Shown here one piece after another: positions 45,981 to 64,000 of a stretch of DNA of 64,000 bases. Every line of letters begins with the position of its first letter. Within the stretch, counting starts at the first letter, position 1. The notes under the pieces are model-generated. The model was not told the DNA's origin and made no database searches. It saw nothing but the letters and a program-made list of their open reading frames with translations. This DNA comes from Macrostomum lignano (lineage: Eukaryota): NCBI GenBank assembly GCA_002269645.1, contig NIVC01000753.1, positions 366,979-430,978 on the forward strand, written 5' to 3'. Made by a program: the position numbers and the translations under genes.

Positions 45981-47424
45981 ATGCCATTTCCAACTGATTC
46001 CATGACTCTGAAAGCTTTGCTGCTTCTAACAGCAGCAGCAATCTCTGCAACAATAGCAGTAGTAGAAGCCGCGTATCCGGTATGCAGTCGTCAGCTGAGC
46101 AGTTGCAGCTGTCAGACCGCTGATGGCGGCACCATCGACTTGTCACCTCTGGCGAAGGCAGCAGACTTTGCCTTTGCCGCCATGGGGCCTCAGCAGCCGT
46201 ATAACTACCTGTACAACCCCTGCACAGGGCAGCGCTGCGACAGCAGCCAAGGAGACGCCGCGTCATGTCAGAGATCTACAGATGGGCGCTATGTGAGAAT
46301 TAGAGTTGCTGCGTGCTGACTGGGAGAGGGTAGGGGAGAGAGGGTAGGGGAGAGAGGGTAGGGGAGAGAGGGTAGGGGAGAGAGGGTAGGGGAGAGATGG
46401 AAGAGGAGACAGGGAAGGGGAGAGAGGGAAGGGGAGAGAGGGAAGGGGAGAGAGGGTAGGGGAGAGAGGGAAGGGGGAGAGAGGGAAGGGGAGAGAGGGA
46501 AGGGGAGAGAGGGAAGGGGAGAGAGGGTAGGGGAGAAAGGGAAGGGGAGAGAGGGTAGGGGAGAGAGGGAAGGGGAGAGAGGGTAGGGGAGAGAGGGTAG
46601 GGGAGAGAGGGTAGGGGAGAGAGGGTAGGGGAGAGAGGGAAGGGAGAGAGGGTAGGGGAGAGAGGGAAGGGGAGAGAGGGTAGGGGAGAGAGGGTAGGGG
46701 AGAGAGGGTAGGGGAGAGAGGGTAGGGGAGAGAGGGTAGGGGAGAGAGGGTAGGGAGAGAGGGTAGGGGAGAGAGGGTAGGGGAGAGAGGGTAGGGGAGA
46801 GAGGGTAGGGGAGAGAGGGTAGGGGAGAGAGGGTAGGGGAGAGAGGGAAGGGGAGAGAGGGTAGGGGAGAGAGGGAGAGGGCTGACTATCCCTCCAACAC
46901 GGCTCGCCAACTGTCAGGAGTACCTGCTGGGCACCCAGTCGACAGCCCAGTTCTCCACGGAGCCGCAGGCGGGGCTCCAACTGACATACAGCGCCCTCTC
47001 CGGCGACGGCAAGCGCCGGTCAGCCCAGGTGCAGCTGGTCTGCGATCAGTCGGCCTCCGTGCCCAAATTCGAGGCTCTGGATGATGGCAGCGGTGGGCCG
47101 CAGTTGATTCTGTACAAAATGCGGCTGACCTCAAAGCACTGCTGCGAACAGTCCGGTGGAGGAGGAGGCGGCGGCGGCGGTGGCGGCCTAAGCGGCGGCG
47201 ACATCCTGCTGATTGTGTTCTTCTGCCTGGTGTTTGTCTACGTGGCTGGCGGCCTGGCTTTTAATGCGCTGGTGCGGAAGCTGCCAGTTTATCCTGATTC
47301 TGTGCCCAATAGAGAGTTCTGGCTGGCACTGCCGGGCCTTGTGCGGGACGGCTGCGTGTTCTCTTTCAATGGCGTTCGCGGCTTAGTGCGCGGCAGGGGA
47401 GGAAATAGCTATGAGAACATTTGA
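45981..47424 (+). CDS. Cation-dependent mannose-6-phosphate receptor / ATG27-like type I membrane protein; exons 45981(or 46002)-46292 and 46918-47424
   Basis: Signal peptide; MRH-like TIDLSPL...YLYNPC...C..LGT...VQLVCD...HCC; TM ILLIVFFCLVFVYVAGG; cytoplasmic PNREFW..LPGLVRDG and terminal YENI; phase-0 GT-AG intron. Confidence 0.88.
46322..46880 (+). repeat. 14-nt G-rich minisatellite (AGGGTAGGGGAGAG) filling the M6PR-like intron
   Basis: Tandem copies visible. Confidence 0.93.
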
Positions 47425-49292: not shown

Positions 49293-49412
49293 AGTAGTAT
49301 ACGTTTTTTTGACACAAAGCCGATTTCCTTATGGCGAAATACATAGTAAGTACAGGCCCAAAAAAATGGCAGAGTCTGAAATTTGCCGTGCACGCAAACT
49401 AGCTTTTACGCA
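49293..49412 (+). repeat. Left terminal inverted repeat
   Basis: 49304-49384 is the reverse complement of 63919-64000 with one substitution and one homopolymer length difference; weaker similarity continues to ~49412. Confidence 0.95.
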
Positions 49413-49630
49413 ATGAATTAACCAATTAGCTGAATCACTTTTACGCAAACACCTGTCTATCCACCTAAATTCTATCCGCAATGAATGCAGCTAATTACAA
49501 GCCCAACCAAAATTCAATTTGACACAAAGCTTATTTCGCGTATAACTTAACGCATTTAAATTCTTCTTTTCAAGCAGTATTGTATATTTCAACTAGATAC
49601 AAACACAATTTGACGCACAAATTAGCGAGT

Positions 49631-50194
49631 TTACAAATATTGAGGCAGCACTCGTAAAACAAAATTGCGTAATTTAGCATACAAGTATCGAAACGAACCA
49701 GTGCGAATTATATTCCGTTTAAAAACGCTTCGAATAAAACACTCTAGGTTTCCTCTGGTAGTCAACTTATGAAAAATATAAAAAATTACCCAAAATCCAC
49801 AACTTCCACTCTGTGGGTCTTGGATAGCAAAGCGACTATAACACCAATTTTTCGAATTTCCACATTCTTTTCCTAGCCATTTTGCTATTCTTGGCAATGG
49901 TACTAGACCAAGAGAATCAAAATATTCACCAAGTCGTTTGCTACCGCGACCTGCTCGATGACCATAAACCCAAACGCATACCCAATGTTTTCCGGGCAGG
50001 TTGGAGACGTCAGTATTAACGATAAAAAAATAGTCTTTACCGTCTAAAGGTAAGCGTCTAAGTCCACCAACAAAGTTTTGAGGAAAAACACCAAGAAATA
50101 CAACATTTAAAAAATGTGCGCACAATTTCGATACAACATTGCGAAGGAAGCGATCTGTTACACCACGATCTAGGATAGAATCAATTACTTCCAT
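49631..50194 (-). CDS. Adenain-like cysteine maturation protease (187 aa)
   Basis: FLGVFP, IVNTD...GKHWV, EYFDSLG, IQ...SGSCG: His/Asp/Cys triad intact. Confidence 0.92.
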   Translation of the reverse strand: MEVIDSILDRGVTDRFLRNVVSKLCAHFLNVVFLGVFPQNFVGGLRRLPLDGKDYFFIVNTDVSNLPGKHWVCVWVYGHRAGRGSKRLGEYFDSLGLVPLPRIAKWLGKECGNSKNWCYSRFAIQDPQSGSCGFWVIFYIFHKLTTRGNLECFIRSVFKRNIIRTGSFRYLYAKLRNFVLRVLPQYL

Positions 50195-51506
50195 ACTGTG
50201 CCAGGAACAATGTCGCGAAGTTCAGTCAGTTGCAGTTGCTTGTCAAATATACCTCCAAATATGACGTTGTACACGGTACTAGTTGCAGCATTGAAGCGTA
50301 ACTCTAGTTTTACATTTCCTTCCTTATACAGTTGCACTCCCCGTCCGACACCAGGTTCACTTCCAAGACTGAATGCAAAAATTGAGTAACCATTGGCGTA
50401 ATCCAGCATATTAAATCCAATATCTCGTCCCTGTAGATAGATTCCAAGCTGTTGTAGCAAAAAATTATACTCTGTCACACAATCATCTCCAAAGTTTGTC
50501 TGCAGCGGACGCGATGGTACCGAGTCTCCATTCACAAACACACCAATGCTGCTCACATTTGCATGCTCAAAGTTGAACGGATTTGTGTCCATGCTTCCAT
50601 TGAATGCCTTGTTGCTTACGATTGCCATCAATAAAAGCCGTGGTACCCCACTAGGAAACAAATTTTCATGCGTATGGCTAGACGATCCTCGGGTATAGTA
50701 AACGTACCAAGGCTTAGACTTCGGTGCGGATATAATGCATTGTGACTTTTAAGTCCATGAGCATGTGCACTGATAACACTCGGCGAGGGTTGAACAAACC
50801 GCAATCGTAGTTCTGCACGCAAAAACTTGATCTCATAGTCTTTTAAAACCGCACCAGCTTCTAATGTTGACCCGCTCAGGACAAATTTACTTTTTGCCGG
50901 TATGAGCTTGATCCGTAGTGGTGTCTTTGATAGTAGATACCGAGGCTGACGAAACAAATCCAAGAATAACGGCCCCGATACAGTGCACCGCCTATTGTTA
51001 GCAATGAGCGCCTGCCTCTTTGTTCGTCCATCGTTTTCACTTGTTGCATTCATTTTACCAGCTGTATCCTTGTAAAACCCCCACGGCAGTAAACCAGCCT
51101 TCTGAGCTGTATGTCCATATTCCAGTAATGTAAGAAGCATAGCCTTGTATGGATACATAAAACTACCACCTTCAACTACAGTATCGCCAATAGTAAATTG
51201 AACGTCCTCAAACAATGTTCCAATAACCAAATTATTCAAACAAACAAAATTTTTCGTTGCATCTATAGGTTCACCTTCACTATCACTAACGCTGAAGCAT
51301 ACCGTGAGCACAGTTTCTTGTAGATCCAAATACAAATCGCCTGCAGGCACAACTTCAAATTCGATAGGTGATCCTTTTGTAATACCATGTTGCGGTTGAA
51401 TGTTAGTATATCGATTATCCAAAACACTAAACTGAACAGGACTTTGATCAAATAGCGACAATTCACTTTTAAGAGCAGCAATATCAGGTCCAAGCAAATG
51501 GTTCAT
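50185..51506 (-). CDS. Major capsid protein (double jelly-roll, Polinton type), ~440 aa if a 1-nt frameshift near 50691 is corrected
   Basis: KSELSLF...SPIEFEV...YLDL..T.L...NNL..TLFEDV...YPYKA.L..LL.YG in ORF 51506-50628; continues as NLFPSGVPRL...NPFNFEH...P..PL...GYSIFAFSL...GNVKLELRF in ORF 50661-50185. Confidence 0.9.
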
Positions 51507-51507
51507 G

Positions 51508-51966
51508 CTACTTTTCAAACAGACTAAAAAGTTTCTTGCTTGCAGTAGCAGTTCGACGTTTTCCTATACCACCGGTCTTCTTGCGTTTTCTTTTGTTCAC
51601 GCGTCCCTTTCCACACTGTCTTGTTCGTCGTTTCTTTTGCCGTTTCTTCTTTCCTAAGCTTATAGCCACTCCACTGGTTCTTTTCCTTCGCTTTGGTCTC
51701 GAAACTGCAGTTGTATTAAACATCTCTTCGCTCGATTCTGTGTCCAAGTGACGCTTCCGACCCATACCAATTTTTGCTGTCGCACTTTTCAAATACTCCA
51801 GACCACGATCCAAGAAATCTTTCTTTGCGTTGCGTAGTACAGGATACACCAATCTGTCCGCCAAATTTGACAAAAAACCGTAACCTTCGTAAACAGGAAT
51901 GCCATATCCACCTCCACCTTCAGCAGATCTATTCGGACCAGAATAAAAAGCAAAAATAGGATCCAT
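51508..51966 (-). CDS. Basic (Lys/Arg-rich) putative core/DNA-packaging protein (152 aa from ATG 51966)
   Basis: GYGIPVYEGYGFLSNL motif followed by an extremely K/R-rich tail; abuts the MCP start. Confidence 0.7.
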   Translation of the reverse strand: MDPIFAFYSGPNRSAEGGGGYGIPVYEGYGFLSNLADRLVYPVLRNAKKDFLDRGLEYLKSATAKIGMGRKRHLDTESSEEMFNTTAVSRPKRRKRTSGVAISLGKKKRQKKRRTRQCGKGRVNKRKRKKTGGIGKRRTATASKKLFSLFEK

Positions 51967-52007
51967 TTCAACAGTCTTCTCTTCGTCATGCAATCCCAAT
52001 TCATGTG

Positions 52008-53168
52008 TTACTTATACACTTTAGAAAATAGTTTAGCAGTCTTTGCGTCAAGATCATTTTCGTTTAACCACTGACTTCTTGAGATTGGCATACCTTTCCA
52101 TTTTACTAGATACAGACGACTTCCATTTTTCGCTCGATCAGTTTCAATAACTTTTTCAATTTCATTAGGTGTTTCATCTGTCTCGTTTACCAACATTAGT
52201 TCCGCTTGGTTAAACCTTCCTTTCAGCACTTCAAATCCATCTTCAGGGTCCACTAATTCGTACATTGGCGGGTCTGTCAAGTGTACACGATGAATGCGAT
52301 ATTTTGAATTACTCCAAGTCGTAGTGTATCCTTTTTCAAATGTTCCTCGACGTCGTGTAATTCTAACCCAATCACCAACTTTAAATTTATTCTCATTCTT
52401 TTTAGTGTACGACTTCGCAAACATTTTGTCCCACAAAATTCCTTGTAAATGCGGGTCTGTCTCTACCCGTTTTGGTGTTTCTCCACTCAAGGATCGATGA
52501 GGACTAGAGTTGAAATTATCTTCCAATTGCGGTAAAATGTCAAACCATCGAGGTAAATTTTTTGCTCGAAAGTATCGTAATAGACGTTCCTTTAACGAGC
52601 GGATAAATCGTTCAGCCATGCTTGCCTTGTAATTGCTTTGGCTAACAAAAAATCGAACTCCTTCCTGTTTCAGCATTTGACGTGTAGCTCTTCCGAGAAA
52701 CTCCATACCAGCATCACCTTGTAAATAAACAGGCTTAAAACCACTTCGAAAAATCTCTAGTAATACTTGACTAACTTCTGAAGGCTTCTTTGTACGCAAT
52801 GGTCTTAGTCGTACAACTCTAGTAAAACAGTCGATAAGAACAAGTATGTAACGATAACCTCGATTTTCCGTCTTGTATTGAGGTAAATCTGCCAAATCGA
52901 TTTGAAACTGAAACTTTGCAACTGGTGGCACACTAATTTTTGGAGTTGGAAAGTTTCGTCGTGTTTTTCGAAATAAATGATGCTCATTTGTTGATCGCAC
53001 CCAATTATCAACTTCGCGCTTTGCAACTTTGTTCGTAATCTGTGGAAACTTTTTACGTACTTCACGAACAAGTATAGTCTTGTTACCACTAAATGAAGTA
53101 GGCCTGTTCAAGTTAAAAAAAGCATCCGTCAAAAATTCTTCAATTTCCTTACGCACTCGCTTCATCAT
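52008..53168 (-). CDS. Retroviral-type (rve) DDE integrase with C-terminal chromodomain (386 aa), intact
   Basis: FQIDLADL, YILVLIDCFTR, LQGDAGMEF, ASMAERFIRSLK; C-terminal IEKVI...YLVKWKG......W. Confidence 0.95.
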   Translation of the reverse strand: MMKRVRKEIEEFLTDAFFNLNRPTSFSGNKTILVREVRKKFPQITNKVAKREVDNWVRSTNEHHLFRKTRRNFPTPKISVPPVAKFQFQIDLADLPQYKTENRGYRYILVLIDCFTRVVRLRPLRTKKPSEVSQVLLEIFRSGFKPVYLQGDAGMEFLGRATRQMLKQEGVRFFVSQSNYKASMAERFIRSLKERLLRYFRAKNLPRWFDILPQLEDNFNSSPHRSLSGETPKRVETDPHLQGILWDKMFAKSYTKKNENKFKVGDWVRITRRRGTFEKGYTTTWSNSKYRIHRVHLTDPPMYELVDPEDGFEVLKGRFNQAELMLVNETDETPNEIEKVIETDRAKNGSRLYLVKWKGMPISRSQWLNENDLDAKTAKLFSKVYK

Positions 53169-53337
53169 CAGTTAGATTGATGCTAGTCGTTTGACAGTTG
53201 CAACAAAAGAACGAAGCCTCGATCGAATCTCCGTCAGTATCCTCGTTGTGCTCCTTTCCCAGAAACGGCACACATTCAGATTTTATGCAAAAAAACTCAC
53301 AGAGACGAATCAAAAGTTTTTGGAAGATAGATGACAT
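53149..53337 (-). CDS. Small Cys-rich hypothetical protein (62 aa) overlapping the integrase start
   Basis: ATG-initiated, fits the tightly packed co-oriented gene layout; no family recognised. Confidence 0.4.
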   Translation of the reverse strand: MSSIFQKLLIRLCEFFCIKSECVPFLGKEHNEDTDGDSIEASFFCCNCQTTSINLTDDEASA

Positions 53338-53449
53338 GGTTTGTCTTATTAAACTATATATTTTTCATAAACAAAAAATTAACCTTTTTAAAAAGCTTAT
53401 AGTGCTCGAATCAATTTTGTTAAAACGTAATCTGTAATTTTAAAACAAC

Positions 53450-54139
53450 TTAATTCAGTGTTTGATAATTTTCAAACAGACTAAGATCCTCCTTTGCAAC
53501 AGTTTTTGGAGCAGACATTAGCTCGTTTCGTACATGACGCCCGATTTGGTTTGCTGCGATTCCACGTTTTCGAAGAAAGTCTAAAAATGTTTTTAGTCCA
53601 CTAGGCGGTTGAGTCTCGTGTCGCTTAAGCGGTCTGTCTCGAACAACATATTCCATGAGATCTTGTATCTCGGCATCAGTCAAATTAGCCAGCATTGGTT
53701 CTGCATTCTTGTCCATGTCCGAAAATAGGTTTTGAGCGAGAGCTTCGAAACGTGGTAAAAAAACTTTAGGAATTTCCCTTGATTCGCTGGCATATGAACT
53801 TCTTACAGTAGTCCCTTTGCGAACAAGTGACAGATTGTCCTCGTCTCCAGTGCGATAGACTTTGCGCAATTTTAAAAGTTTGTCTTCCAATCTGCTTCGT
53901 TTCAATTGAGCTGTGTAATTTGGCTCCTTTTCCATTTCCTTGTCCAAGTTATCCATTTGGTCTCTCATTTCCACCATATTTTTTGCCAGAGCATCTTGCG
54001 GTGCGTCTAAAACTTCAGTTTTTCGAGGTGTCTCAGCAGTTGGTGACGATCCTTGCTCTGCACCTTGACATGCAGATTGATACACAGATTCAGGTACTAG
54101 ATACATTCGTTGAAAACTACTACTCTCGTTAGTTCGCAT
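53450..54139 (-). CDS. Hypothetical Polinton protein (229 aa)
   Basis: ATG-initiated ORF in the gene array; N-terminal RMYLVPE resembles a recurring Polinton motif (from recollection). Confidence 0.7.
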   Translation of the reverse strand: MRTNESSSFQRMYLVPESVYQSACQGAEQGSSPTAETPRKTEVLDAPQDALAKNMVEMRDQMDNLDKEMEKEPNYTAQLKRSRLEDKLLKLRKVYRTGDEDNLSLVRKGTTVRSSYASESREIPKVFLPRFEALAQNLFSDMDKNAEPMLANLTDAEIQDLMEYVVRDRPLKRHETQPPSGLKTFLDFLRKRGIAANQIGRHVRNELMSAPKTVAKEDLSLFENYQTLN

Positions 54140-54149
54140 TATATTCCTA

Positions 54150-54578
54150 CTACTTTCGTTGAATTGATCGTATTAAATTCGCTGCTCCCGCGGCGGTACC
54201 AACTACTCCAGACGTTATCCCAAGCGCAGTGCTTATAGCAGGTAGAGCGGCAATAATTGGAGCCAAAAAAGGTAAAAATCCTCCGTGTTGGACAAGTATT
54301 TTCCTTTTTGCAGTAATTGGAGTCTTCTGTTCCAAAAGCTGGCGTATATATCTGCGATGCTTCTCAAGTCGTCTTTTGTTACAGTTACTAATTTTAATAC
54401 GTCCACTAATAATATTAAACAGAAAGTCTACTAGACATCGTATCTCCGACTCTGAAAGTGTTTGTAAAAAACTTTTTCTCTGCTTTGGATGCTTTAGCCG
54501 ATAAACAATTTGTAGTAAAAAAGCACACTGACACAATGAGCGAGCATTTTGTTTTCCTTTTTCTGTTAGTTCGCTCAT
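54150..54578 (-). CDS. Small basic Polinton core-type protein with QHGGFLP motif (142 aa)
   Basis: Basic helical N-terminus, KILVQHGGFLPFLAPII, hydrophobic C-terminal segment. Confidence 0.75.
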   Translation of the reverse strand: MSELTEKGKQNARSLCQCAFLLQIVYRLKHPKQRKSFLQTLSESEIRCLVDFLFNIISGRIKISNCNKRRLEKHRRYIRQLLEQKTPITAKRKILVQHGGFLPFLAPIIAALPAISTALGITSGVVGTAAGAANLIRSIQRK

Positions 54579-54634
54579 TCTTACAAAACAAATTCACAAA
54601 ATTTTCTATTACACAATTAATCTTTGCTTATAAA

Positions 54635-55624
54635 TTAGTCCGACCTATGTTTAAAATGCAGTACGACAACAACGTGTGCTCCCGGATCAAAATTAAACGG
54701 TTTTCCGCGCTGGTCCGATAGTCGAATCGAAATCTCGTGAATTTGTTGTCGATTTGTTTTCAAGTAGTAGGGTGTTTGCAATGCACTGCTATCGCGTATA
54801 AGTTCTCCGTTTTTCTTTTGTTGGAGTTCCACAACTCGAAGCAACGGTACTGATGTACTTCCCACTGCTTGATACTCGATTATATCTGTGTAACAGTACA
54901 TGTAAACCGTTTTACTAGGCATCGGAGAAGGTAGCACAGCATCCAAGTAGGTTTTGTTAATGCGCCAAACACGATTTCTCAACCAATATTGGTGTACTTT
55001 GATGTACACTTCTCCTTCCGTTTTTCGAAGATAGTCTCCATGCGAAACAAGTCGTATAGCTTCACCAGGCGATAGAACACAATAAAAAACATAATAGTTC
55101 TCAGGTACTAGCGCTAGAGTATTGTCGAGACTTTTTATCAAATCCAAGTATGAACCATCCGGTGGTTGTACACTACCAGCGGCAGGTTTTGATAATTTTT
55201 CCGAGACAAGTCCAGAAAGTTTCTTCCAAGAGTCAAATTTGAAAGCGTCCATAAATGTAACTGGTAGTTCTAATCCAATAGTTTTTTCGCCTGAATTTCG
55301 TAAAAGCCAGGCAAATTTTTCATCTGTACCAGACGGTTGCCAGGAAACGTAAGCATCCAAGTCTGCCTCTGCCCAAACACGACCCCAATAGTTTTTCTTT
55401 AATCGTATTATTGAGTCAATGTCCGCAAAATATGGAACTTCAAATCGACGCTCACGATGAGCATTTGGCGTCGTAATTGCTCCATGGCACAGTAATTCAA
55501 CTAGTGCAACCTCGAAGAATCCGTTCAATAAATTTATTGGTTCAGTTAGTCGCACTCGAAATTCATTAGGCGAGTTGGTTTCGTAACTGATATCGTTTGA
55601 CGGCAAAAAAACGTAAAAACTCAT
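54635..55624 (-). CDS. Minor capsid protein / penton (329 aa from ATG 55624)
   Basis: MSFYVFLPSN...N....F.V.L..PI.L...FEVALVEL; YCYTDII....VG....PLLRVV; I..I.I.L.D..G....F. Confidence 0.88.
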   Translation of the reverse strand: MSFYVFLPSNDISYETNSPNEFRVRLTEPINLLNGFFEVALVELLCHGAITTPNAHRERRFEVPYFADIDSIIRLKKNYWGRVWAEADLDAYVSWQPSGTDEKFAWLLRNSGEKTIGLELPVTFMDAFKFDSWKKLSGLVSEKLSKPAAGSVQPPDGSYLDLIKSLDNTLALVPENYYVFYCVLSPGEAIRLVSHGDYLRKTEGEVYIKVHQYWLRNRVWRINKTYLDAVLPSPMPSKTVYMYCYTDIIEYQAVGSTSVPLLRVVELQQKKNGELIRDSSALQTPYYLKTNRQQIHEISIRLSDQRGKPFNFDPGAHVVVVLHFKHRSD

Positions 55625-55681
55625 TTTGAAATAAAACACAAACTAATATTGACAACAGTTTATAATTTGCTTATAATAATA

Positions 55682-56371
55682 TTACACAAACTTTGCATCA
55701 CATTCACGAGTATAGACAACTTGTTCATCACCAGAAAATATTCCTGTTCTCAATCGTAAAAAATCTGGTGTCACTTGCCGCAGGTCAATGAATAAATATG
55801 AAAAAGGTTTGTTATTTGTTGCGTCTTCATACACATTCACTAGAAACCTACTATTACGCGGATACATTTGTCGACCGAGATGTTCAACTGTGGTTCGATC
55901 GCGCACACTACGAGTTAGACAAATATAACTAGCTGATAAACTTCGCATGCGTGCTTCTGGATCAGACTTGTTAAAAAGACCTTGACAAAGGTACAGACAA
56001 GTCAAAGGGATATGATGCGCATGCTTTGTAAACATACTAGTAAATTCTGGCAACTTAGCAATCTCGCTTTGCAAGTCGTCAACAACAACCAAATCGTGTG
56101 GTAAAAAACGATTAATCATCTGTGGTGTGAATTCGGGTACAAAAACAATAGGGTCAAGACCGCTTTTTTGCCAGCATGTTCTAATTCGTTGTTGATCGTC
56201 TGGTTTCAAACTTGATCCATGGCACCAAACAAGACGGCACGGTTTTTTATCAAATAATTCTTTTCGTTCAGTCAACAAACGCAACGTCCATTCAGTTTTA
56301 CCCGAGTTTGAAGGTCCAGCAATAATAAATGTAGAATCGTGAGCTAGTTGCATATTGTATGGCTGCTGCAT
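55682..56371 (-). CDS. A32/FtsK-like genome packaging ATPase (~229 aa)
   Basis: Walker A IAGPSNSGKT, Walker B VVVDD, HH, SLSASYI, PFSYLFIDL...LRTGIF. Confidence 0.93.
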   Translation of the reverse strand: MQQPYNMQLAHDSTFIIAGPSNSGKTEWTLRLLTERKELFDKKPCRLVWCHGSSLKPDDQQRIRTCWQKSGLDPIVFVPEFTPQMINRFLPHDLVVVDDLQSEIAKLPEFTSMFTKHAHHIPLTCLYLCQGLFNKSDPEARMRSLSASYICLTRSVRDRTTVEHLGRQMYPRNSRFLVNVYEDATNNKPFSYLFIDLRQVTPDFLRLRTGIFSGDEQVVYTRECDAKFV

Positions 56372-56373
56372 TT

Positions 56374-56817
56374 TCAAGCACCAAAGCGTTGCTTAACTTG
56401 CATAACCTTGGTAACCAACTTCGCAGCTAGTTTTTCTTTCCAACCAGTAGACGGATCGTGGGCAATCTCTCGTGCACCAGATTCTAATAGCTTATCAGCT
56501 TTTAACCTCTCTTGCACGTCAGAATTTTTATCATAGGCCACGTCGTGAAGCATGCACAAATTGTCAAGCCGATTAATTCCTCGTTGTCCTTTTGCTAGCC
56601 TAGCTTGCAGTTGCGTACCTGGACCACAAAACTGATATCCGCCGGGTAAATGTGCTTCAAATGGTAAATGATTAATTAACCAATTTACGACACCATAACC
56701 TTGTTGCTTTTTATTAATCTTTCTAATAGATTTCTTCTTTTTACGAATGCTCTTCTTTTTCTTTTTAAAACCTCGATCTTTCGCTGGAGACATTTTTACA
56801 ACATATATTTTAGGCAT
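56374..56817 (-). CDS. Parvovirus-VP1u-like phospholipase A2 domain protein with basic N-terminus (147 aa)
   Basis: HLPGGYQFCGPGT (Ca-binding-loop-like), NRLDNLCMLHDVAY (catalytic HD), ADKLL. Confidence 0.88.
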   Translation of the reverse strand: MPKIYVVKMSPAKDRGFKKKKKSIRKKKKSIRKINKKQQGYGVVNWLINHLPFEAHLPGGYQFCGPGTQLQARLAKGQRGINRLDNLCMLHDVAYDKNSDVQERLKADKLLESGAREIAHDPSTGWKEKLAAKLVTKVMQVKQRFGA

Positions 56818-56908
56818 AAATTTTTAAAATTGCTTATAGTATTTACAAAGCTCTCGCATAGTGCACCAATCACCAAAGAAAAAAATCAGTTTATTATTAT
56901 TATTATAC

Positions 56909-57391
56909 TTATTGGCCAGTGCTGCCAAAGCCGCCAAAGCCGCGCCGCTTGGTCGGCGGCTCAATCATCCGAATCGAATTGTCTGCTTCAGTCACATAGA
57001 CTGAAGCAAGCACGGCCTGCTCCAGAACCAGTTGTGCAATACTGAGCCCGGCATAGTACTCAAAGTCTTCCGGACTGTAATTAAACAAGACTATACAGAT
57101 TTCACCAGTATAGTCGGGGTCGATTACGCCACCGCCAACAAATAAGCTGTGCAGAGCCATGCTGGAACGTCCCGCTATCCTGCCATAGGTACCAGGCGGT
57201 AAGCGAATTTTGAGTCCGGTTCGCACACTCCGGGACTCGTAGGCCGGAATGGTACCATCGACGCCAGCGCAAAGATCATACCCGATCGACCCGACAGTTT
57301 TTCGGGTCGGAATCGTTGCCGAATCGTATAGACGTTCAACTAAAAGCTTACGATCAGTTAGTTGTTGTTGCTGCTGCTGCTCGGGATTCAT
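56909..57391 (-). CDS. dut: Trimeric dUTPase (160 aa from ATG 57391)
   Basis: All five motifs recognisable: SIGYDL, GRIAGRSS, GGVIDPDYTGEI, IAQLV, RGFGGFGSTG. Confidence 0.95.
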   Translation of the reverse strand: MNPEQQQQQQLTDRKLLVERLYDSATIPTRKTVGSIGYDLCAGVDGTIPAYESRSVRTGLKIRLPPGTYGRIAGRSSMALHSLFVGGGVIDPDYTGEICIVLFNYSPEDFEYYAGLSIAQLVLEQAVLASVYVTEADNSIRMIEPPTKRRGFGGFGSTGQ

Positions 57392-57683
57392 GTCGATTCT
57401 TGTAGCTGAAAGTTTAAAAAAAAGTTTTTTTTCTTGAAACATGAACGATAGCACTACATTTACGTCTACTACAAACACAAGCTTAGTCTTGAGAATCTAA
57501 CTATAAAAAATATACTTTTTCAAATAATTAAACACAAAAAAGTGCTAAAATTATAATTTAAACGAATGCCGGTATCATTTATTTATTGTAAATAATGATC
57601 AATGAAAAAATTAATGATGGGTTACAGTCTTCTATAGCATGCTATTACTTTGTACAACAAAAGAGATCAGAGCATATTGTTAA

Positions 57684-58014
57684 TTAATTAGCCAAGTGCC
57701 AGTGTCCAAAGGGTAGCGAATTAATTGAACTTGTCCAGGATCGCTTCGTATCGAAGAAGCTTAGTGCAAGTTTTCTTTGTTGCATCAAAAAAAACTTTCT
57801 GTTTTCGAGAACGAATGGACTGTATGCGCGAAAACACAAGTTGTCGCTTGTGTAAGACTCTTAAATAGTCTTGATGCTTTAAACTGCTCTGTGCGGCTTT
57901 AGAAGCAGTACTGCTCCAGCTTTGCGACCGATTGAGACTGGAACTTTAAACGATTGCTGCTTAACCAGACCGGACCGGACTGGACCGGACCGGACTGGAC
58001 CGGACTCCCCGCGC

Positions 58015-58046
<32 letters not shown>

Positions 58047-58760
58047 ACCACCACCACCGCCGCCACCACCACCACTGCCGCCGCCCGCCCCCACACCACC
58101 GTGGGACGTATTTGTTGACAGTGTGCTTGCATGGCTTTTGCGATAAACGCAGAGCATCAAGTCTAGCTGCTCGATTGCTCTATATTGCCAATTACTACCT
58201 CGAGATTGAAAATTGTCAATTTTTATTAACAACTGATTAATAACGCGTGCGAACCAGTCATTGTAGGCCTCGGGAGATAACAGCATGTCACTGTTTGTAA
58301 TCGTCTCATCAAATGATATTGTCGCAATGTTGGTATTAAAATAGACCGAAATGATCTCTTCGCTGCTCGAGCCATCGTTGTCGTCTGCTGCTGTTTTCGG
58401 TCGAAATAGTGTCACTTTCAAGTGAAAGCAGACTCTTATTAATAAACTGGGTGAGCCAATTTTTTCCAATATTTTAAATATTGGTTCTCTTAAAGACGCA
58501 ATCAACTCGCCAGGAAGTAACTCGCCAGAGCTGTTGCCTTGTTGTTCAAGAGTGGGAGTAAATTCGACAAAATTTACCCGACCACGATGAGCTGACTCGC
58601 GCAAAGCGATGGACCACCCATCTGGTGGGTTTTCGATCAGGTTTTGCAGCGATCCGGTCAGTAATCGTTGCGGTGAAAAACAAGCACCATGCGAGTGAGC
58701 ATGCAGCTCGGCTTGATTACTGAACTTTTTTCTGCAGATTTGGCATTGTGCACGCGGCAT
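57684..58760 (-). pseudogene. Internally deleted protein-primed DNA polymerase B: C2H2 finger + N-terminal segment fused out of frame to the last ~70 codons
   Basis: CQICRKKF....ELHAH; IDNFQSRGSNWQYRAIEQLDL (GSGW-type motif). After a junction near 57900-57915, other frames read SKAAQSSLKHQDYLRVL...IQSIRS and KLALSFFDTKR....NSLPFGHW*, the typical Polinton pPolB C-terminus. No exonuclease or polymerase motifs A-C are present. Confidence 0.82.
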
Positions 58761-58983
58761 TGTGTGCACCTAGCTCGACAACGAGCGTATCGAGCATAAT
58801 ATTAATAGATGATCCGGTTTGTCATTTGCGGCTGTAAGAAAAATGATGATTTGGTTAGTTATAGGTATAGCTGACACGTTTACTATTAGAGAAAACAATT
58901 GGTAAATAAATAAAAAAAGACAAAATGTTTGTAAAAGAATGCATCGCAACTGCGATTTGACAGCAATTGTTTACTTGTTAAGT

Positions 58984-59541
58984 TTAGTTATTAACAGAGA
59001 TTAAAAAATCCTTGACATGGTTAAGAATATTATTCAATTCATGAGTGTTTTGAACGCCCATAATAACAAACTTTTTCGAAAAAAATATGTTACAAAAAAG
59101 CCTTGGTTTTGATGCTGATCTAACAGAAACTGCTTGTGGGAAATTTTCTGCATCGTATCCAACCAGATAATTCGAATAGTAGCCTGCATATCTTTTTAGA
59201 CTAGAGAAACCGAATTTTGGCCAAAGATGACCAATAAAGCCGACATAGGTACTGCTCTGAATTTTTACTGAATCAAAATCTACACAATTAATAGTGTCGT
59301 TGATAAATCGTAAAACTGAGACTATCTGAGAATTTGATTTACAGCCATATATAGTTAGTTTTCCTGCTGGATAAAGTTGGATTTTAGCATTTGAATAAAT
59401 TGTCTTTAGCATTGTTGGTCGGCTTAGGAATAGTTTGCAAAACCGGTTTCTGGTCTGTAGCTTCTGTTTGGTCTGCTTTAAATCAAATTTTTCAAACGGG
59501 TGCAGCTTCAGACTCGCAGTAACTATTAATAGGACAAGTCG
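58984..59541 (-). CDS. TATA-binding protein (TBP)-like protein; 185-codon open frame after a splice acceptor, first in-frame ATG at 59412
   Basis: Manual alignment to the TBP core: IVTASL..FDLK; AKIQLYPAGKLTIYGCKS (cf. TALIFSSGKMVCTGAKS); DSVKIQS (cf. DFKIQN); YDAENFP...KPRLFCNIFFSKKFVIMG (cf. YEPELFP...KPRIVLLIFVSGKVVLTG). Confidence 0.82.
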   Translation of the reverse strand, partial: RLVLLIVTASLKLHPFEKFDLKQTKQKLQTRNRFCKLFLSRPTMLKTIYSNAKIQLYPAGKLTIYGCKSNSQIVSVLRFINDTINCVDFDSVKIQSSTYVGFIGHLWPKFGFSSLKRYAGYYSNYLVGYDAENFPQAVSVRSASKPRLFCNIFFSKKFVIMGVQNTHELNNILNHVKDFLISVNN

Positions 59542-59751
59542 CTAAAACGGAAAATAAATAATAAGAAAAGTTAAACATGACTATACTATCGTAAATTCTA
59601 ATATTAAATTACAAAACCTGGTTAGCGTACAAGGAGTAGCAAAAAATGTTTTGAGCTTTTCCCTAAAAAATAATATTTCCCTAGCCAAAAATTTGATAAA
59701 TATAGTGGAATAAGTTAGTTAAAACTTGGATAAAATTAGTCAAAAATTTTG

Positions 59752-60950
59752 TTACTCATCATCAGAGCTGCTGTACGAGTCGTCCGATGAAGACACGCTA
59801 GCTGTAGTAGCGTCCGCAGCAGCACGCTTTAAAAATGCTGTCTCCTTGGACGCTACCCTGGTTCCAGAGGCAGGTGTACTCACCAAGATCTTTGCTGGTG
59901 GAGCCTCCACCCAGTCTGTGCCATCTGCACCAGCTTCGGCAGAATTGTTTTGCTGTTTTGCACCGCTGCGTTTTCGAACTTGCTTTTTAGGCGGCGGTTC
60001 AATAGAGGCTGGCGCTGCATTCGATGTAGTCGACTTCTTCGATACGGTGGTGGTAGACCGACGCTTTGCAGGTGACTTGGCAGGTGTCACCTGGCTTGAA
60101 TTCTGCAGGCTTTGTTCATTTGCTTCTTCTTGCTCACAGGTAGATGTTGGGGACGGACTCCTGCTTCTAATTGCTGACTTGGTCGCGGGTAGGTGTGCAA
60201 GCACTCCCTTGAACATGTCGAGGCGCTGCAACATGTTGTCGGAAGATTCTATGAGTGTCAGAGAGCGCACAGCGAATGTAATGCGCCAGACGAGGCAGCC
60301 TTTTGGACAATACAAGCTCGTTGCTTGCACTGTCATTTGGTAGGTACCGCTGACACCTTTGAAATCGGAAATGGACACCTCCTTCCCGTGTGGATGATCG
60401 TTGCTGATCCTGATTGTGGCACAAGGGTAAGCAGGCTTTATAGCCAGCCATTGTTGAGGCACAAACTCGAGGACGTCGTTAGCATGCTGATGAGCTGGTT
60501 TTGTTAGTCGTGCCAAGGGTCGAGCATCTTGAATCTCGTTCAACTTGACCGATAGACCTTTTTCGACTTGACTGCAAAACATTATATAAATTATGAATAT
60601 AGTTTCCTAAAATTAATTGTATAAATTTAATATGGTGCTCACCGGAGAGAGTGGAAGAGTTCCTTATCGCAGCTGTCTGGATGAAATTGGACACTTACTG
60701 CGTCGCGAGAGTCGTGTCTGCAAGACGGATGATCGAGCTCTGGCCTTTCTGCGATTCCACGAAAAAGCTCCATTGGAGCCTTGGTTTGCAATATAATTGG
60801 GTACCATTTTGTACACTCGATTGATGGTTTCCACGCAATAGATCGAAACTGGCAGGACGAACCAGTCGTGGTTGTAGACTGCTCTCCAACGTAAAAAATC
60901 GGACTCGAGTCGGAGCGTACAATTGACTCCGTCTTGATGCAAGCTGCCAT
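59752..60950 (-). CDS. Spliced gene, join(60950-60643, 60571-59752), 375 aa; probable T7 gp2.5/NCLDV-type OB-fold ssDNA-binding protein with disordered acidic tail
   Basis: 71-nt AT-rich intron CG/GTGAGC...TTTTGCAG/T joins two ORFs in frame (308+820 nt = 376 codons). Motifs YPIILQT..M..FRGI and GTYQMTVQATSLY....WRITFAVRSLTLIE, plus the tail SSSDDSYSSSDDE. The SSB call is inference. Confidence 0.72.
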
Positions 60951-61028
60951 GTCTTACAAGCAATTGAATATAGTATTTCTTTTGCTGTAATGATTGAGCT
61001 CATGAAAAATTGACCATTTCGGGTCTTG

Positions 61029-61036
61029 TATTTATA
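61029..61036 (-). promoter_or_regulatory. Candidate TATA box (TATAAATA) ~80 nt upstream of the SSB-like ATG
   Basis: Consensus TATA sequence at a plausible spacing; the region is AT-rich, so chance occurrence is possible. Confidence 0.4.
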
Positions 61037-61639
61037 GCAAGCTTTGCATGCTGTTTGTGAACTAGTAAACAAATTTAATTGTTGCGTGCTGATTAAGACA
61101 TTGTTGCGTGCCAAAGGTGGCATAAGTTTCTAGGGTGGGTTGCATGATTAGGTCTAATTTTACGCAAATGTAGGTTGATATTTTATACAATAAAATTAAT
61201 GAATCTTAGGCACACTAGTTATAAATTTGCAAGAGTAACACGATGGCAAGCGTTTAATAAGAAGACTGCTGGTTGCTGCTTCATTAGATTGGTTTTGTTC
61301 TCAAGTAGAATGTAATTAAAATATTTTGCGACTTGAAAAATTAGCAATCTTGGATTTTAGAGTAAAAATAAGCTGCACGCGGTGCTATGAAATTAATTTA
61401 TTGAAAGTTTTGCTTGCATGTTGGAATTTTTTAGCTCGCACGGTGACAAGAGATTGCTTGAGTAACCTATATATAGAGTGTTACTTTTCAAACAGAAAAG
61501 GTATAGTTGTAACTCAGCTTTTGCAGTCCTATATTGAGCAGAAGCTATATAGAGTTACACTATCATGCTGCGACGCGCAGCTTGTTGGGACTATAATGAC
61601 TGCCGCTGCTATAACCGCATGCAGTCAGTGCAGTTGACA

Positions 61640-62345
61640 CACAAATGCTGTTTGGACTAAGCTAAATTACTGTGTTGAGACAGTTAAGCTGGACCACGGC
61701 TAAATCACTATTGATACGGTTAATTGCTACTAGACCCATGGCTAAATCACTGTACGTTGAGACGGTTAAGCTGGACCACGACTAAATCGCTGTACGTTGA
61801 GACGGTGGTTAAGCTGGACCATGGTTATAAAACTGGACGGGTGGTTAAGCTGGACGACTACAGCTAAAATTACTGTTGAGTCAGTTATGCTAGACCACAG
61901 CAGCCAAATCACAGTTGAGGTAAAGCTGACCATAGCTAATTCTCACTGTTGAGACGGGTGCTGCTGCTTGGCTCACAGCTAAATAACTGGACAGTTAAGC
62001 TAATCGGACTACAGCTAAATCCCTGTTGAGACAGTTGCCTGGACCACAGCTAAAATCACTGTTGAGGCAGTTAAGTCTGGACAACAGCTAAAATTACTGT
62101 TGAGACAGTTAAGCCTTGACTATAGCTAAATCATCGTTGAGGTAGTTAAGCCTGGACTATAGCTAAATCACTGTTGATGCAGTTTTAAGCTAGACCACAG
62201 CTAAATCATACTGCTGAGGCAAAAAAGCCGGACCACGGCTAAAAACTGTTGAGGCAAAAGCTGGACCACAGCTAAATCATACTGTTGAGGCAAAAGCTGG
62301 ACCACAGCTAAATCATACTGTTGAGGCAAAAGCCAGACCATGGCT
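61640..62345. repeat. Degenerate ~35-40-nt tandem repeats inside the Polinton (CTGGACCACAGCTAAATCACTGTTGAGACAGTTAAG-like)
   Basis: About 18 imperfect copies visible. Confidence 0.85.
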
Positions 62346-63839
62346 AAAGAAACGTATGAAAAAAAATTATTTGCATGGATTAATAATTTTTGTTTAATGA
62401 TGACTGTACAAGATATTGACTTTATATTGAATTAAATAATTTCAATAAATGGCGAATAAAATTGAAAGAATTTTTTAGAATAATGAATTTATAGAGATTA
62501 TATTATTGATTACAGACTTGTTTGATATATACTAAAAGAGCAATTACTTGGACACATTGCTGGCAAAATTTTATGAAGAGTTAGAAAAAATGTCTTTTAA
62601 GATAGTCCCAATATTCAAATACTTGAGTTGTATTACAGGTCTTTGGCTAATTCTACTTGGTAGAAGCCTGTGCTCATTTGAGAGACTTTTACAGACTTGA
62701 TGTCCTTCTGTACAATAATTGCGCGAGTTTAGCAGCGCGTTGAACTTGGGTAGAAATAGCAATTGATGATGATGGTTTTCAGTTGCTGTCGTTGGTTTGG
62801 TACTTGTAGGCTACTGCAAGTTTGCTTTGTTGGGTCATTGTAGCTGGTTGTGATGGTGGTGGTGGTGCATACTGCAGTTGGTCAGTTGTCGTGGGTTCGA
62901 TTGCTGCCTAATTGATGAATAACATCAGTTCTTGTGTAAATGCGATCTAGCTCAGTTGTCTGTCTCTCGACATGAATCGAGGTTACTCTGGCGAGAGATG
63001 TAAATATGATGCTCTTGCAGCAGAATTGGATGTGGTGGTGTCGTGGCAAATGCGTTTGCACTGATCTGGAGGTGGCCGCGTGAAGAAACCATTCTTGAAT
63101 GCTATAATAATGGATAAGATGAGGGAAATTTGGTATAGGTGCATGTATACAATGTATATAGAAACTGAACTAAAGAGAATCAGTCTAAACAGAAACCGAA
63201 CTAAGCAGACAATCAATCTAGAAATTCTGACTAGCAGAGTATTAGTCTAAACAGAACCGAACTAGCAGAAATCAATCTAGAGACTGAACAACAGAGGATC
63301 GGTCTAAACAGAAACCGAACTAACAATCAATCTAGAAACTAAACTATAGCGAACAGTCAATCTAAAAAGAAAAACTGAACTAGAGTAGGTGATTATCTTA
63401 CCTTGTTTAACATAGCGCTCGGCCAATTCTGCTGACGTGATCGCTTCATTTCACTTAAGATGTAAGTATAGTTGAACAAGTAGTATAATGTAAACTTGGT
63501 TTAAGTTATTTAATATTTTCTGTGTCAGGTGTTCGTATATATATATATAGTATAAAGAAGAAGCATGTTGACGCAGTTGTTGACATAGTATCTGTAAACC
63601 ATCTGCTCAAGTTGGTGCAAAAATTCTATAGGCACTCAAGAATAGATCATTTACTATCTTTCTTCAAAAGGGTGATAATATTCACAAGTTTTCAATATTT
63701 CAAAAACACTTGAAATGTGTGAATAGCTTTGGAGTAAATTTGTCTTGAATGGAATCCTTTGAAGTGTGTTTGTGTCACCATTGCTAGAATCGGTTACTTG
63801 TATTTTGGACAGGTGGGATATGCAATTCGTCTGAATAAT

Positions 63840-64000
63840 CACGTTGCGTAAAAGATATTTAGCGTGCACTTGGAATTTCAGACTGCGTGCACATGGAATT
63901 TCAGACTGCGTGCACATGAAATTTCGGACTCTGCCATTTTTTTGGGCCTGTACTTACTATGTATTTCGCCATAAGGAAATCGGCTTTGTGTCAAAAAAAA
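63840..64000 (-). repeat. Right terminal inverted repeat (runs off the window), with extra tandem copies of a ~24-nt GTGCACGCAGTCTGAAATT unit
   Basis: Reverse complement of 49304-49412. Confidence 0.95.

Follow-up and report, generated by a model that had tools for sequence, protein, structure and literature searches.

The TBP-like frame of a Maverick/Polinton copy in the flatworm Macrostomum lignano lacks an ATG of its own at the start. It probably forms the terminal coding exon of an early Maverick gene with alternative splicing, joined in cis to an upstream SSB-like gene. The first-pass annotation of this DNA had proposed that the TBP start depends on the AUG of a host spliced leader (SL). 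This was unsupported as stated, a conserved phase-0 cis donor being present upstream; a start supplied in cis was considered most likely, and the SL-AUG idea fitted the polymerase of sister lineages better than it fitted TBP. The copy represents a known kind of element with a conserved feature and an unreported expression mode.

The element and its TBP-like frame

The window (the whole stretch analysed here, 64,000 nucleotides) contained a non-autonomous Maverick/Polinton copy at 49293..64000 (no strand assigned), truncated at its far end by the end of the contig and devoid of most of the protein-primed polymerase (pPolB). Its inverted arms (49304-49396 and 63907-63999) were 93 nt long and matched at 96%; the first bases of the ends in several other copies were AGTAGT. 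A 6-bp target duplication was encountered in one of two two-ended copies (present in C877, absent from C84), and the end of the window is the contig end. Pfam detected an integrase (PF00665, E 5e-8) with a chromodomain (rve-chromo), as well as TBP, dUTPase, a PLA2-like domain and an adenovirus pX-like motif, while the protease displayed a weak match to Peptidase_C5 (E 0.043). Genes which we take to encode the capsid and packaging ATPase were labelled from their size, order and Walker A motif; no database match was found for these candidates. The likely major capsid gene (50188-51563, minus) was split by a frameshift here and formed a single frame in other copies. No RNA polymerase gene was noted in the element. 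All four long polymerase frames from other copies matched protein-primed PolB (PF03175, E 1e-11 to 1e-21); in the window family pPolB was reduced to its N-terminal zinc-finger part. Degenerate tandem repeats of ~35-45 nt occupied 61650-62330, in the interval that separates the promoter from the right end. Outside the element, a host exon (46837-47424, plus) presumably encodes the end of a mannose-6-phosphate-receptor-type membrane protein.

The DNA search gave 40 matches among 43 candidates, 31 of which were near full length at >=97%. At the protein level 83 matches were obtained, some of them from families only 40-46% identical. Twenty divergent places were sampled and assigned to six lineages, A (window) to F; lineages B and C being close, they amount to five deep lineages, not six. 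Lineages A and F were not grouped in four trees, and F was paired with D in two trees (96-99% support), one of which was flagged for long branches meeting. Decayed fragments (L110-L112) were omitted. Viral contigs and metagenome contigs searched for the locus contained no true relative: L117 proved on inspection to be a chance opposite-strand match, and L118 displayed the same match. One copy (on C272; L073:6297-7819) displayed a second SSB-like gene, inverted and directly after the ATPase, indicative of a rearranged or nested element.

The TBP-like exon (58984..59541, minus) is a stop-to-stop frame of 185 codons which opens directly after the TAG of an acceptor and displays its first in-frame ATG at 59412, codon 44. 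The first-pass annotation had described 43 TBP codons before the first ATG, right after an in-frame acceptor, and this was confirmed over 59541-58984. It was equally correct that the sole ATG of the 210-nt spacer (59578) is out of frame. Contrary to what had been stated, the acceptor TAG does not block this ATG, which opens a different frame of 28 codons ending at a TGA. The frame matched Pfam TBP (E 2e-7). An AlphaFold model of the 185-aa frame alone (pLDDT 94.7) placed strand 1 at residues 2-11 and a helix at 21-30; its best Foldseek match was TBP (E 9e-10, TM 0.73) and its best BFVD match the TBP of Heterosigma akashiwo virus (E 1e-9). A TBP-like profile matched 35 PDB sequences, all of them TBP or TBP-containing. 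As modelled, the frame is a complete two-repeat TBP saddle. In TBP, four Phe residues act in DNA binding by kinking the DNA. The pair of the second repeat was kept (F134, F153); in the first repeat one Phe site was occupied by Tyr, and the surroundings of the other contained no Phe.

Judged from substitutions between lineages, purifying selection acts on the 43 Met-less codons, which are constrained like the remaining gene (pS 0.59-0.89, pN 0.24-0.60, with pS>pN in 15/15 pairs). A YAG stood directly 5' of the first TBP codon in 24/24 loci examined, a count which omits truncated or duplicate loci (L033, L035-L040, L060), and this codon was Arg in nearly all copies. Both the conservation of the acceptor and the selection on the Met-less codons, which the first-pass annotation had named as checks, were upheld. 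In the 30 closest copies sampled, the donor, the TBP acceptor and the next acceptor were intact without exception. Copies with an in-frame ATG had been named as evidence against the SL proposal. One F subgroup (L048) displayed such an ATG, 11 codons upstream and within the pyrimidine tract; its sisters L053 and L058 lacked it.

Among the four close outside relatives (P0002-P0005), P0002 and P0003 displayed unrelated sequence before an Arg/Lys start, a pattern expected of an acceptor at this place. The distant stand-alone relatives P0006 and P0007 (24-25% identical) carried a Met at most two residues from the acceptor position. Word-based protein searches with the TBP-like frame found, in the database searched, no near record, neither a fused protein of 325-2000 aa nor a stand-alone one. 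In lineage E (L050:1440-2819, minus) the TBP-like frame continued into a deoxynucleoside kinase, giving 460 aa (PF01712, E 6e-24); kinase-like sequence occupied a separate frame in D and F and was lost from the window lineage.

A start on unspliced RNA, at a near-cognate codon or at Met44, is highly improbable. Unspliced contigs did span the acceptor in at least three of eight runs (among the contigs listed), and Met44 was invariant in an alignment of eight, but a start at Met44 would delete strands 1-2 and helix 1, whose codons are those under purifying selection. The pyrimidine tract and YAG were moreover conserved in 24/24 loci, and codon 1 of the window frame comes after a TAG stop.

The upstream gene and its internal donor

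The SSB-like gene starts at its own ATG at 60950, downstream of a TATA-like box (61031..61036, minus) found at a similar position in the other five lineages. The coding part of exon 1 (60643..60950, minus) matches P0138, a public M. lignano model of this gene of 375 aa; a UniRef record of the upstream gene, identical at 100%, and the SL match described below both point to M. lignano as the host. It is followed by a cis-spliced phase-2 intron of 71 nt (60572..60642, minus), the joint of which was displayed by contigs of three of four runs (among the contigs listed). Intron 1 was present in 34 of the 35 genomic copies scored, the remaining one being without anchor, and its phase 2 was common to all lineages. 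Exon 2 (59752..60571, minus) reads on to an acidic tail if its internal donor is skipped. The resulting 375-aa form is conserved and displayed by contigs, and the public gene models P0138-P0140 stop at this tail. Atlas features of the protein reached 0.92-0.95 to Nucleocytoviricota clusters, in which 10-17% of members carry DUF5871/DUF2738/Pox_I3. The exon-2 model was of low confidence (pLDDT 56) and gave phage SSB matches at E 2e-3, with VIA Z <=3.5. As a lead, the product is likely a ssDNA-binding protein resembling viral ones, with a possible OB fold and an acidic tail. In the decayed lineage-B copy L057 no stop interrupted the SSB-like tail, which crossed the spacer and entered the TBP frame.

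Inside exon 2, after K-I-L, lies a phase-0 donor GTGAGT (59878..59883, minus; cut 59884|59883). Together with the pyrimidine tract and TAG acceptor it would delimit an alternative intron of 342 nt (59542..59883, minus), as deduced from the conserved splice sites. All 24 loci examined carried a phase-0 donor GT[AG]AG after K/E-x-L, at a distance of 259-619 nt from the downstream TBP acceptor; in six representatives it stood 42-50 codons before the exon-2 stop. These representatives of the lineages are 22-53% identical, and in all six the donor fell in one alignment column, within a poorly conserved linker. The invariant Leu adjoining it was coded TTG, CTG, CTC or CTT. Between lineages, silent sites were saturated. 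None of the nine other Val-Ser dipeptides read GTRAG (Fisher p 2e-4, for lineages only partly independent), a value that overstates the case because a conserved Ser tends to keep one codon family; the Val third position alone gave ~0.03 for five lineages. In lineages A and F the next (polymerase) acceptor is out of frame, so that the donor had no productive partner other than the TBP acceptor among those found. Exon 1 holds a further phase-0 donor (60698), which was not conserved.

The conserved, phase-matched donor column makes alternative cis-splicing the best explanation. In its favour, the unit is cis-spliced at intron 1, and acceptors are reported to be predominantly SL-spliced where no cis donor lies upstream (PMC8629364). 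Splicing of 59884|59883 to 59541 would yield a fusion of ~517 aa starting at ATG 60950 (332 + 185 = 517 aa predicted), and RNAs skipping the donor would yield the 375-aa protein with its acidic tail. Use of the 59541 acceptor in cis, with or without SL, is accordingly rated likely. The TBP-like domain would probably act on the element's own promoters.

Of the 20 runs covering the region, eight were examined as contigs, which were presumed by guess to be RNA, had rare forms dropped and came with no DNA control. No junction at 59541, cis or SL, was found among the contigs listed for these runs; in the same contigs the donor was crossed unspliced in at least six of the eight runs and the TBP acceptor in at least three. 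The missing cis junction counts against the fusion, as does the fact that no precedent was found for an SSB-TBP fusion. The first-pass annotation had regarded cis-splicing from an upstream ATG-containing exon as fatal to its proposal: the in-frame donor 342 nt upstream is indeed there and conserved, and the corresponding junction was not found among the contigs listed for the eight runs. A break at 59886/59915 in run X5 was excluded as donor use, being 2 nt off the donor, and a break at 59536 was rejected as acceptor use, its position differing from the acceptor. A contig of run X6 displayed 60964 joined to inverted dUTPase-like sequence.

Spliced leader and polymerase start

The SL of M. lignano is 35 nt long and ends in ATG (PMC8629364), so that the flatworm host with an AUG-ending SL presupposed by the first-pass annotation was borne out. 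All four SL array loci checked displayed an SL RNA donor, host SL genes carrying ATG|GTAAG. The first ten genomic SL matches lacked a donor and were rejected as SL RNA genes; these dispersed copies of the SL 3' end (L061-L070) shared the same downstream start in 9/10 cases, which suggests an SL-derived repeat. Rfam assigned no family to three SL-matching loci.

Element RNA was found SL-joined at the acceptor following that of TBP. The acceptor TTACAG (58832..58837, minus) precedes an exon beginning at 58831, and one contig of run X7 carried at 58832 a loose end of 23 nt which, together with a shared G, equalled the 3'-terminal bases of the published SL of 35 nt. TTACAG was displayed at this acceptor by 31 of 35 element copies, the other four being without anchor. 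The 23-nt SL end had 58 exact genomic matches (G000), none of them on the contigs listed for lineage A copies. The SL end and these genomic checks together indicate trans-splicing of element RNA at the polymerase acceptor, in one contig of one run. SL joining of element RNA was thus borne out at 58831; at 59541, where the first-pass annotation had placed it, no SL was found among the contigs listed for eight runs.

In the window, the N-terminal zinc-finger part of pPolB (57879..58769, minus) displays its own ATG (Met-Pro), and the rest of the polymerase is absent. Alignment of pPolB N-termini revealed Met-Pro in lineages A and F, with the upstream acceptor out of frame. Lineages B, C, D and E displayed an in-frame acceptor exactly before the same Pro, reading TTCCAG in all four, with unrelated sequence upstream. 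In lineage B the Pro stands three codons after a stop, and the frame reaches its first Met at codon 112 (L041, L042); in lineage E the first Met falls at codon 122-124 (L050, L051, L055, L056), well beyond the conserved zinc finger. In the decayed B copy L059, codon 11 was a Met lying within the finger. In-frame ATGs 36 and 15 codons upstream render the polymerase start ambiguous in C and D, respectively. Between the TBP and polymerase acceptors no donor was common to the lineages; in L041, L042 and the window copy no candidate reached the cut-off. AATAAA preceded the polymerase acceptor by 30-421 nt in six of eight loci, as in an operon. The SL junction of the window lineage was seen at the equivalent, out-of-frame acceptor. 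From these alignments it seems rather likely that the SL AUG starts pPolB in lineages B and E; the rival reading is that the upstream donor, likewise of phase 0, skips the TBP exon.

Between 58831 and 58760 (minus), SL joining leaves two short upstream frames before the polymerase ATG of the window, which might damp translation; the frame opened by the SL AUG stops after nine more codons. An acceptor CTTTCAG (57406-57411, minus), 14 nt before the dUTPase ATG, is likely a further SL site. Similar pre-dUTPase acceptors were encountered in other lineages, and the tightly packed later genes displayed their own ATGs and no consistent acceptor.

Exclusive use of the TBP acceptor by the SL would make the TBP-like frame a separate cistron, with the SL AUG starting a 186-aa TBP and the donor kept for another reason, e.g. 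blocking spacer cleavage. Such use is consistent with the AUG end of the host SL, with SL joining at 58831 and with the coincidence of the acceptor with the Met position of stand-alone relatives, the same pattern as in the SL-Met argument for pPolB. The 185-aa frame also folds completely by itself in the model, the donor-skipping isoform is conserved and displayed by contigs, and AATAAA was found in the spacer of two of six representatives. The motif [T/C]TNCAG, reported for SL sites (PMC8629364), was matched by five of six TBP acceptors, but this motif also fits some cis intron-1 acceptors and hence does not discriminate, and the window acceptor is TTTTAG, not TTNCAG. Exclusive SL use would leave a strong phase-matched donor unexplained in 6/6 representatives, and no SL end was found at 59541 among the contigs listed for the eight runs; this reading is quite unlikely.

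Less unlikely, and overlapping the best explanation, is a dual use in which both products are functional: cis-splicing would give the fusion; in RNAs that bypass the donor, the SL would be attached at the TBP acceptor to give free TBP. Phase 0 suits either route, RNA with an unspliced donor needs some downstream processing, and acceptors are often common to cis- and trans-splicing in flatworms (PMC12582326). In parasitic flatworms, on average 66% of SL acceptor sites display some cis-splicing (PMC12582326). Against dual use, cis-splicing is described as strongly prevented at operon-resolving SL sites (PMC12582326), and neither junction was found among the contigs listed for the eight runs. SL use at 59541 at a functional level was held to be tentative, the balance leaning somewhat against it.

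With cis-splicing to the fusion as the preferred reading, the genes would form one transcription unit, likely polycistronic, from which SL trans-splicing at 58831 releases the polymerase mRNA. Where a lineage has no genomic ATG at this place, the polymerase would start at the SL AUG. The SL may also have a minor use at 59541, and an additional SL-started TBP of 186 aa is plausible. That the SL resolves a polycistronic early unit, and that several lineages lacking an ATG for the polymerase, and possibly for free TBP, depend on its AUG, was slightly favoured.

Comparison with known systems

If this dependence is real, a DNA virus would be bound to a host phylum via a borrowed start codon, its horizontal spread would be restricted to hosts with an AUG-ending SL, and SL AUG dependence would exist outside host genes. 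Conserved alternative splicing would be part of Polinton expression, missed by ORF-based annotation, and hidden splicing may explain apparently start-less polymerases elsewhere. M. lignano is a transgenic model with abundant RNA data.

A literature search, outside of which lay many subscription papers, found no report of a DNA virus or Polinton with SL trans-splicing. The string 'splic' has no occurrence in the available text of PMC8502044 and PMC11071308, and one in that of a preprint on nematode Polintons (10.1101/2023.08.22.554363), where it concerns group I introns. SL-bearing retrotransposon sequences, possibly trans-spliced or chimeric, were reported in Schistosoma (PMC5832876).

The element resembles the Maverick/Polintons described by Starrett et al. 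2021 (PMC8502044) in its inverted ends, protein-primed PolB (in fuller copies), rve-chromo integrase, putative adenain-like protease, pX-like and PLA2-like genes and dUTPase; it is also reminiscent of related MELD elements, a figure legend on which lists a TBP-like gene (PMC8502044). It differs from Maverick/Polinton by its spliced, TATA-driven SSB-like gene, its ATG-less TBP exon and its SL-joined polymerase acceptor. TBP-like proteins of Nucleocytoviricota share the TBP fold of the window frame. They have their own ATG and belong to viruses with their own RNA polymerase.

The adenovirus E2 unit likewise combines a ssDNA-binding protein and a polymerase in one spliced unit (PMC7851563). In contrast to the window element, adenovirus uses cis-splicing only, with no TBP fold and no host SL. 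A small exon further upstream provides the initial codons of its pol and pTP. In over 40 Schistosoma cDNAs an in-frame acceptor replaces the gene's own Met (Cheng et al. 2006, as cited in PMC9851317). Initiation at the SL AUG in flatworms was thus reported for host genes, whereas the candidates described here are genes of a virus-like element, the strongest being pPolB.
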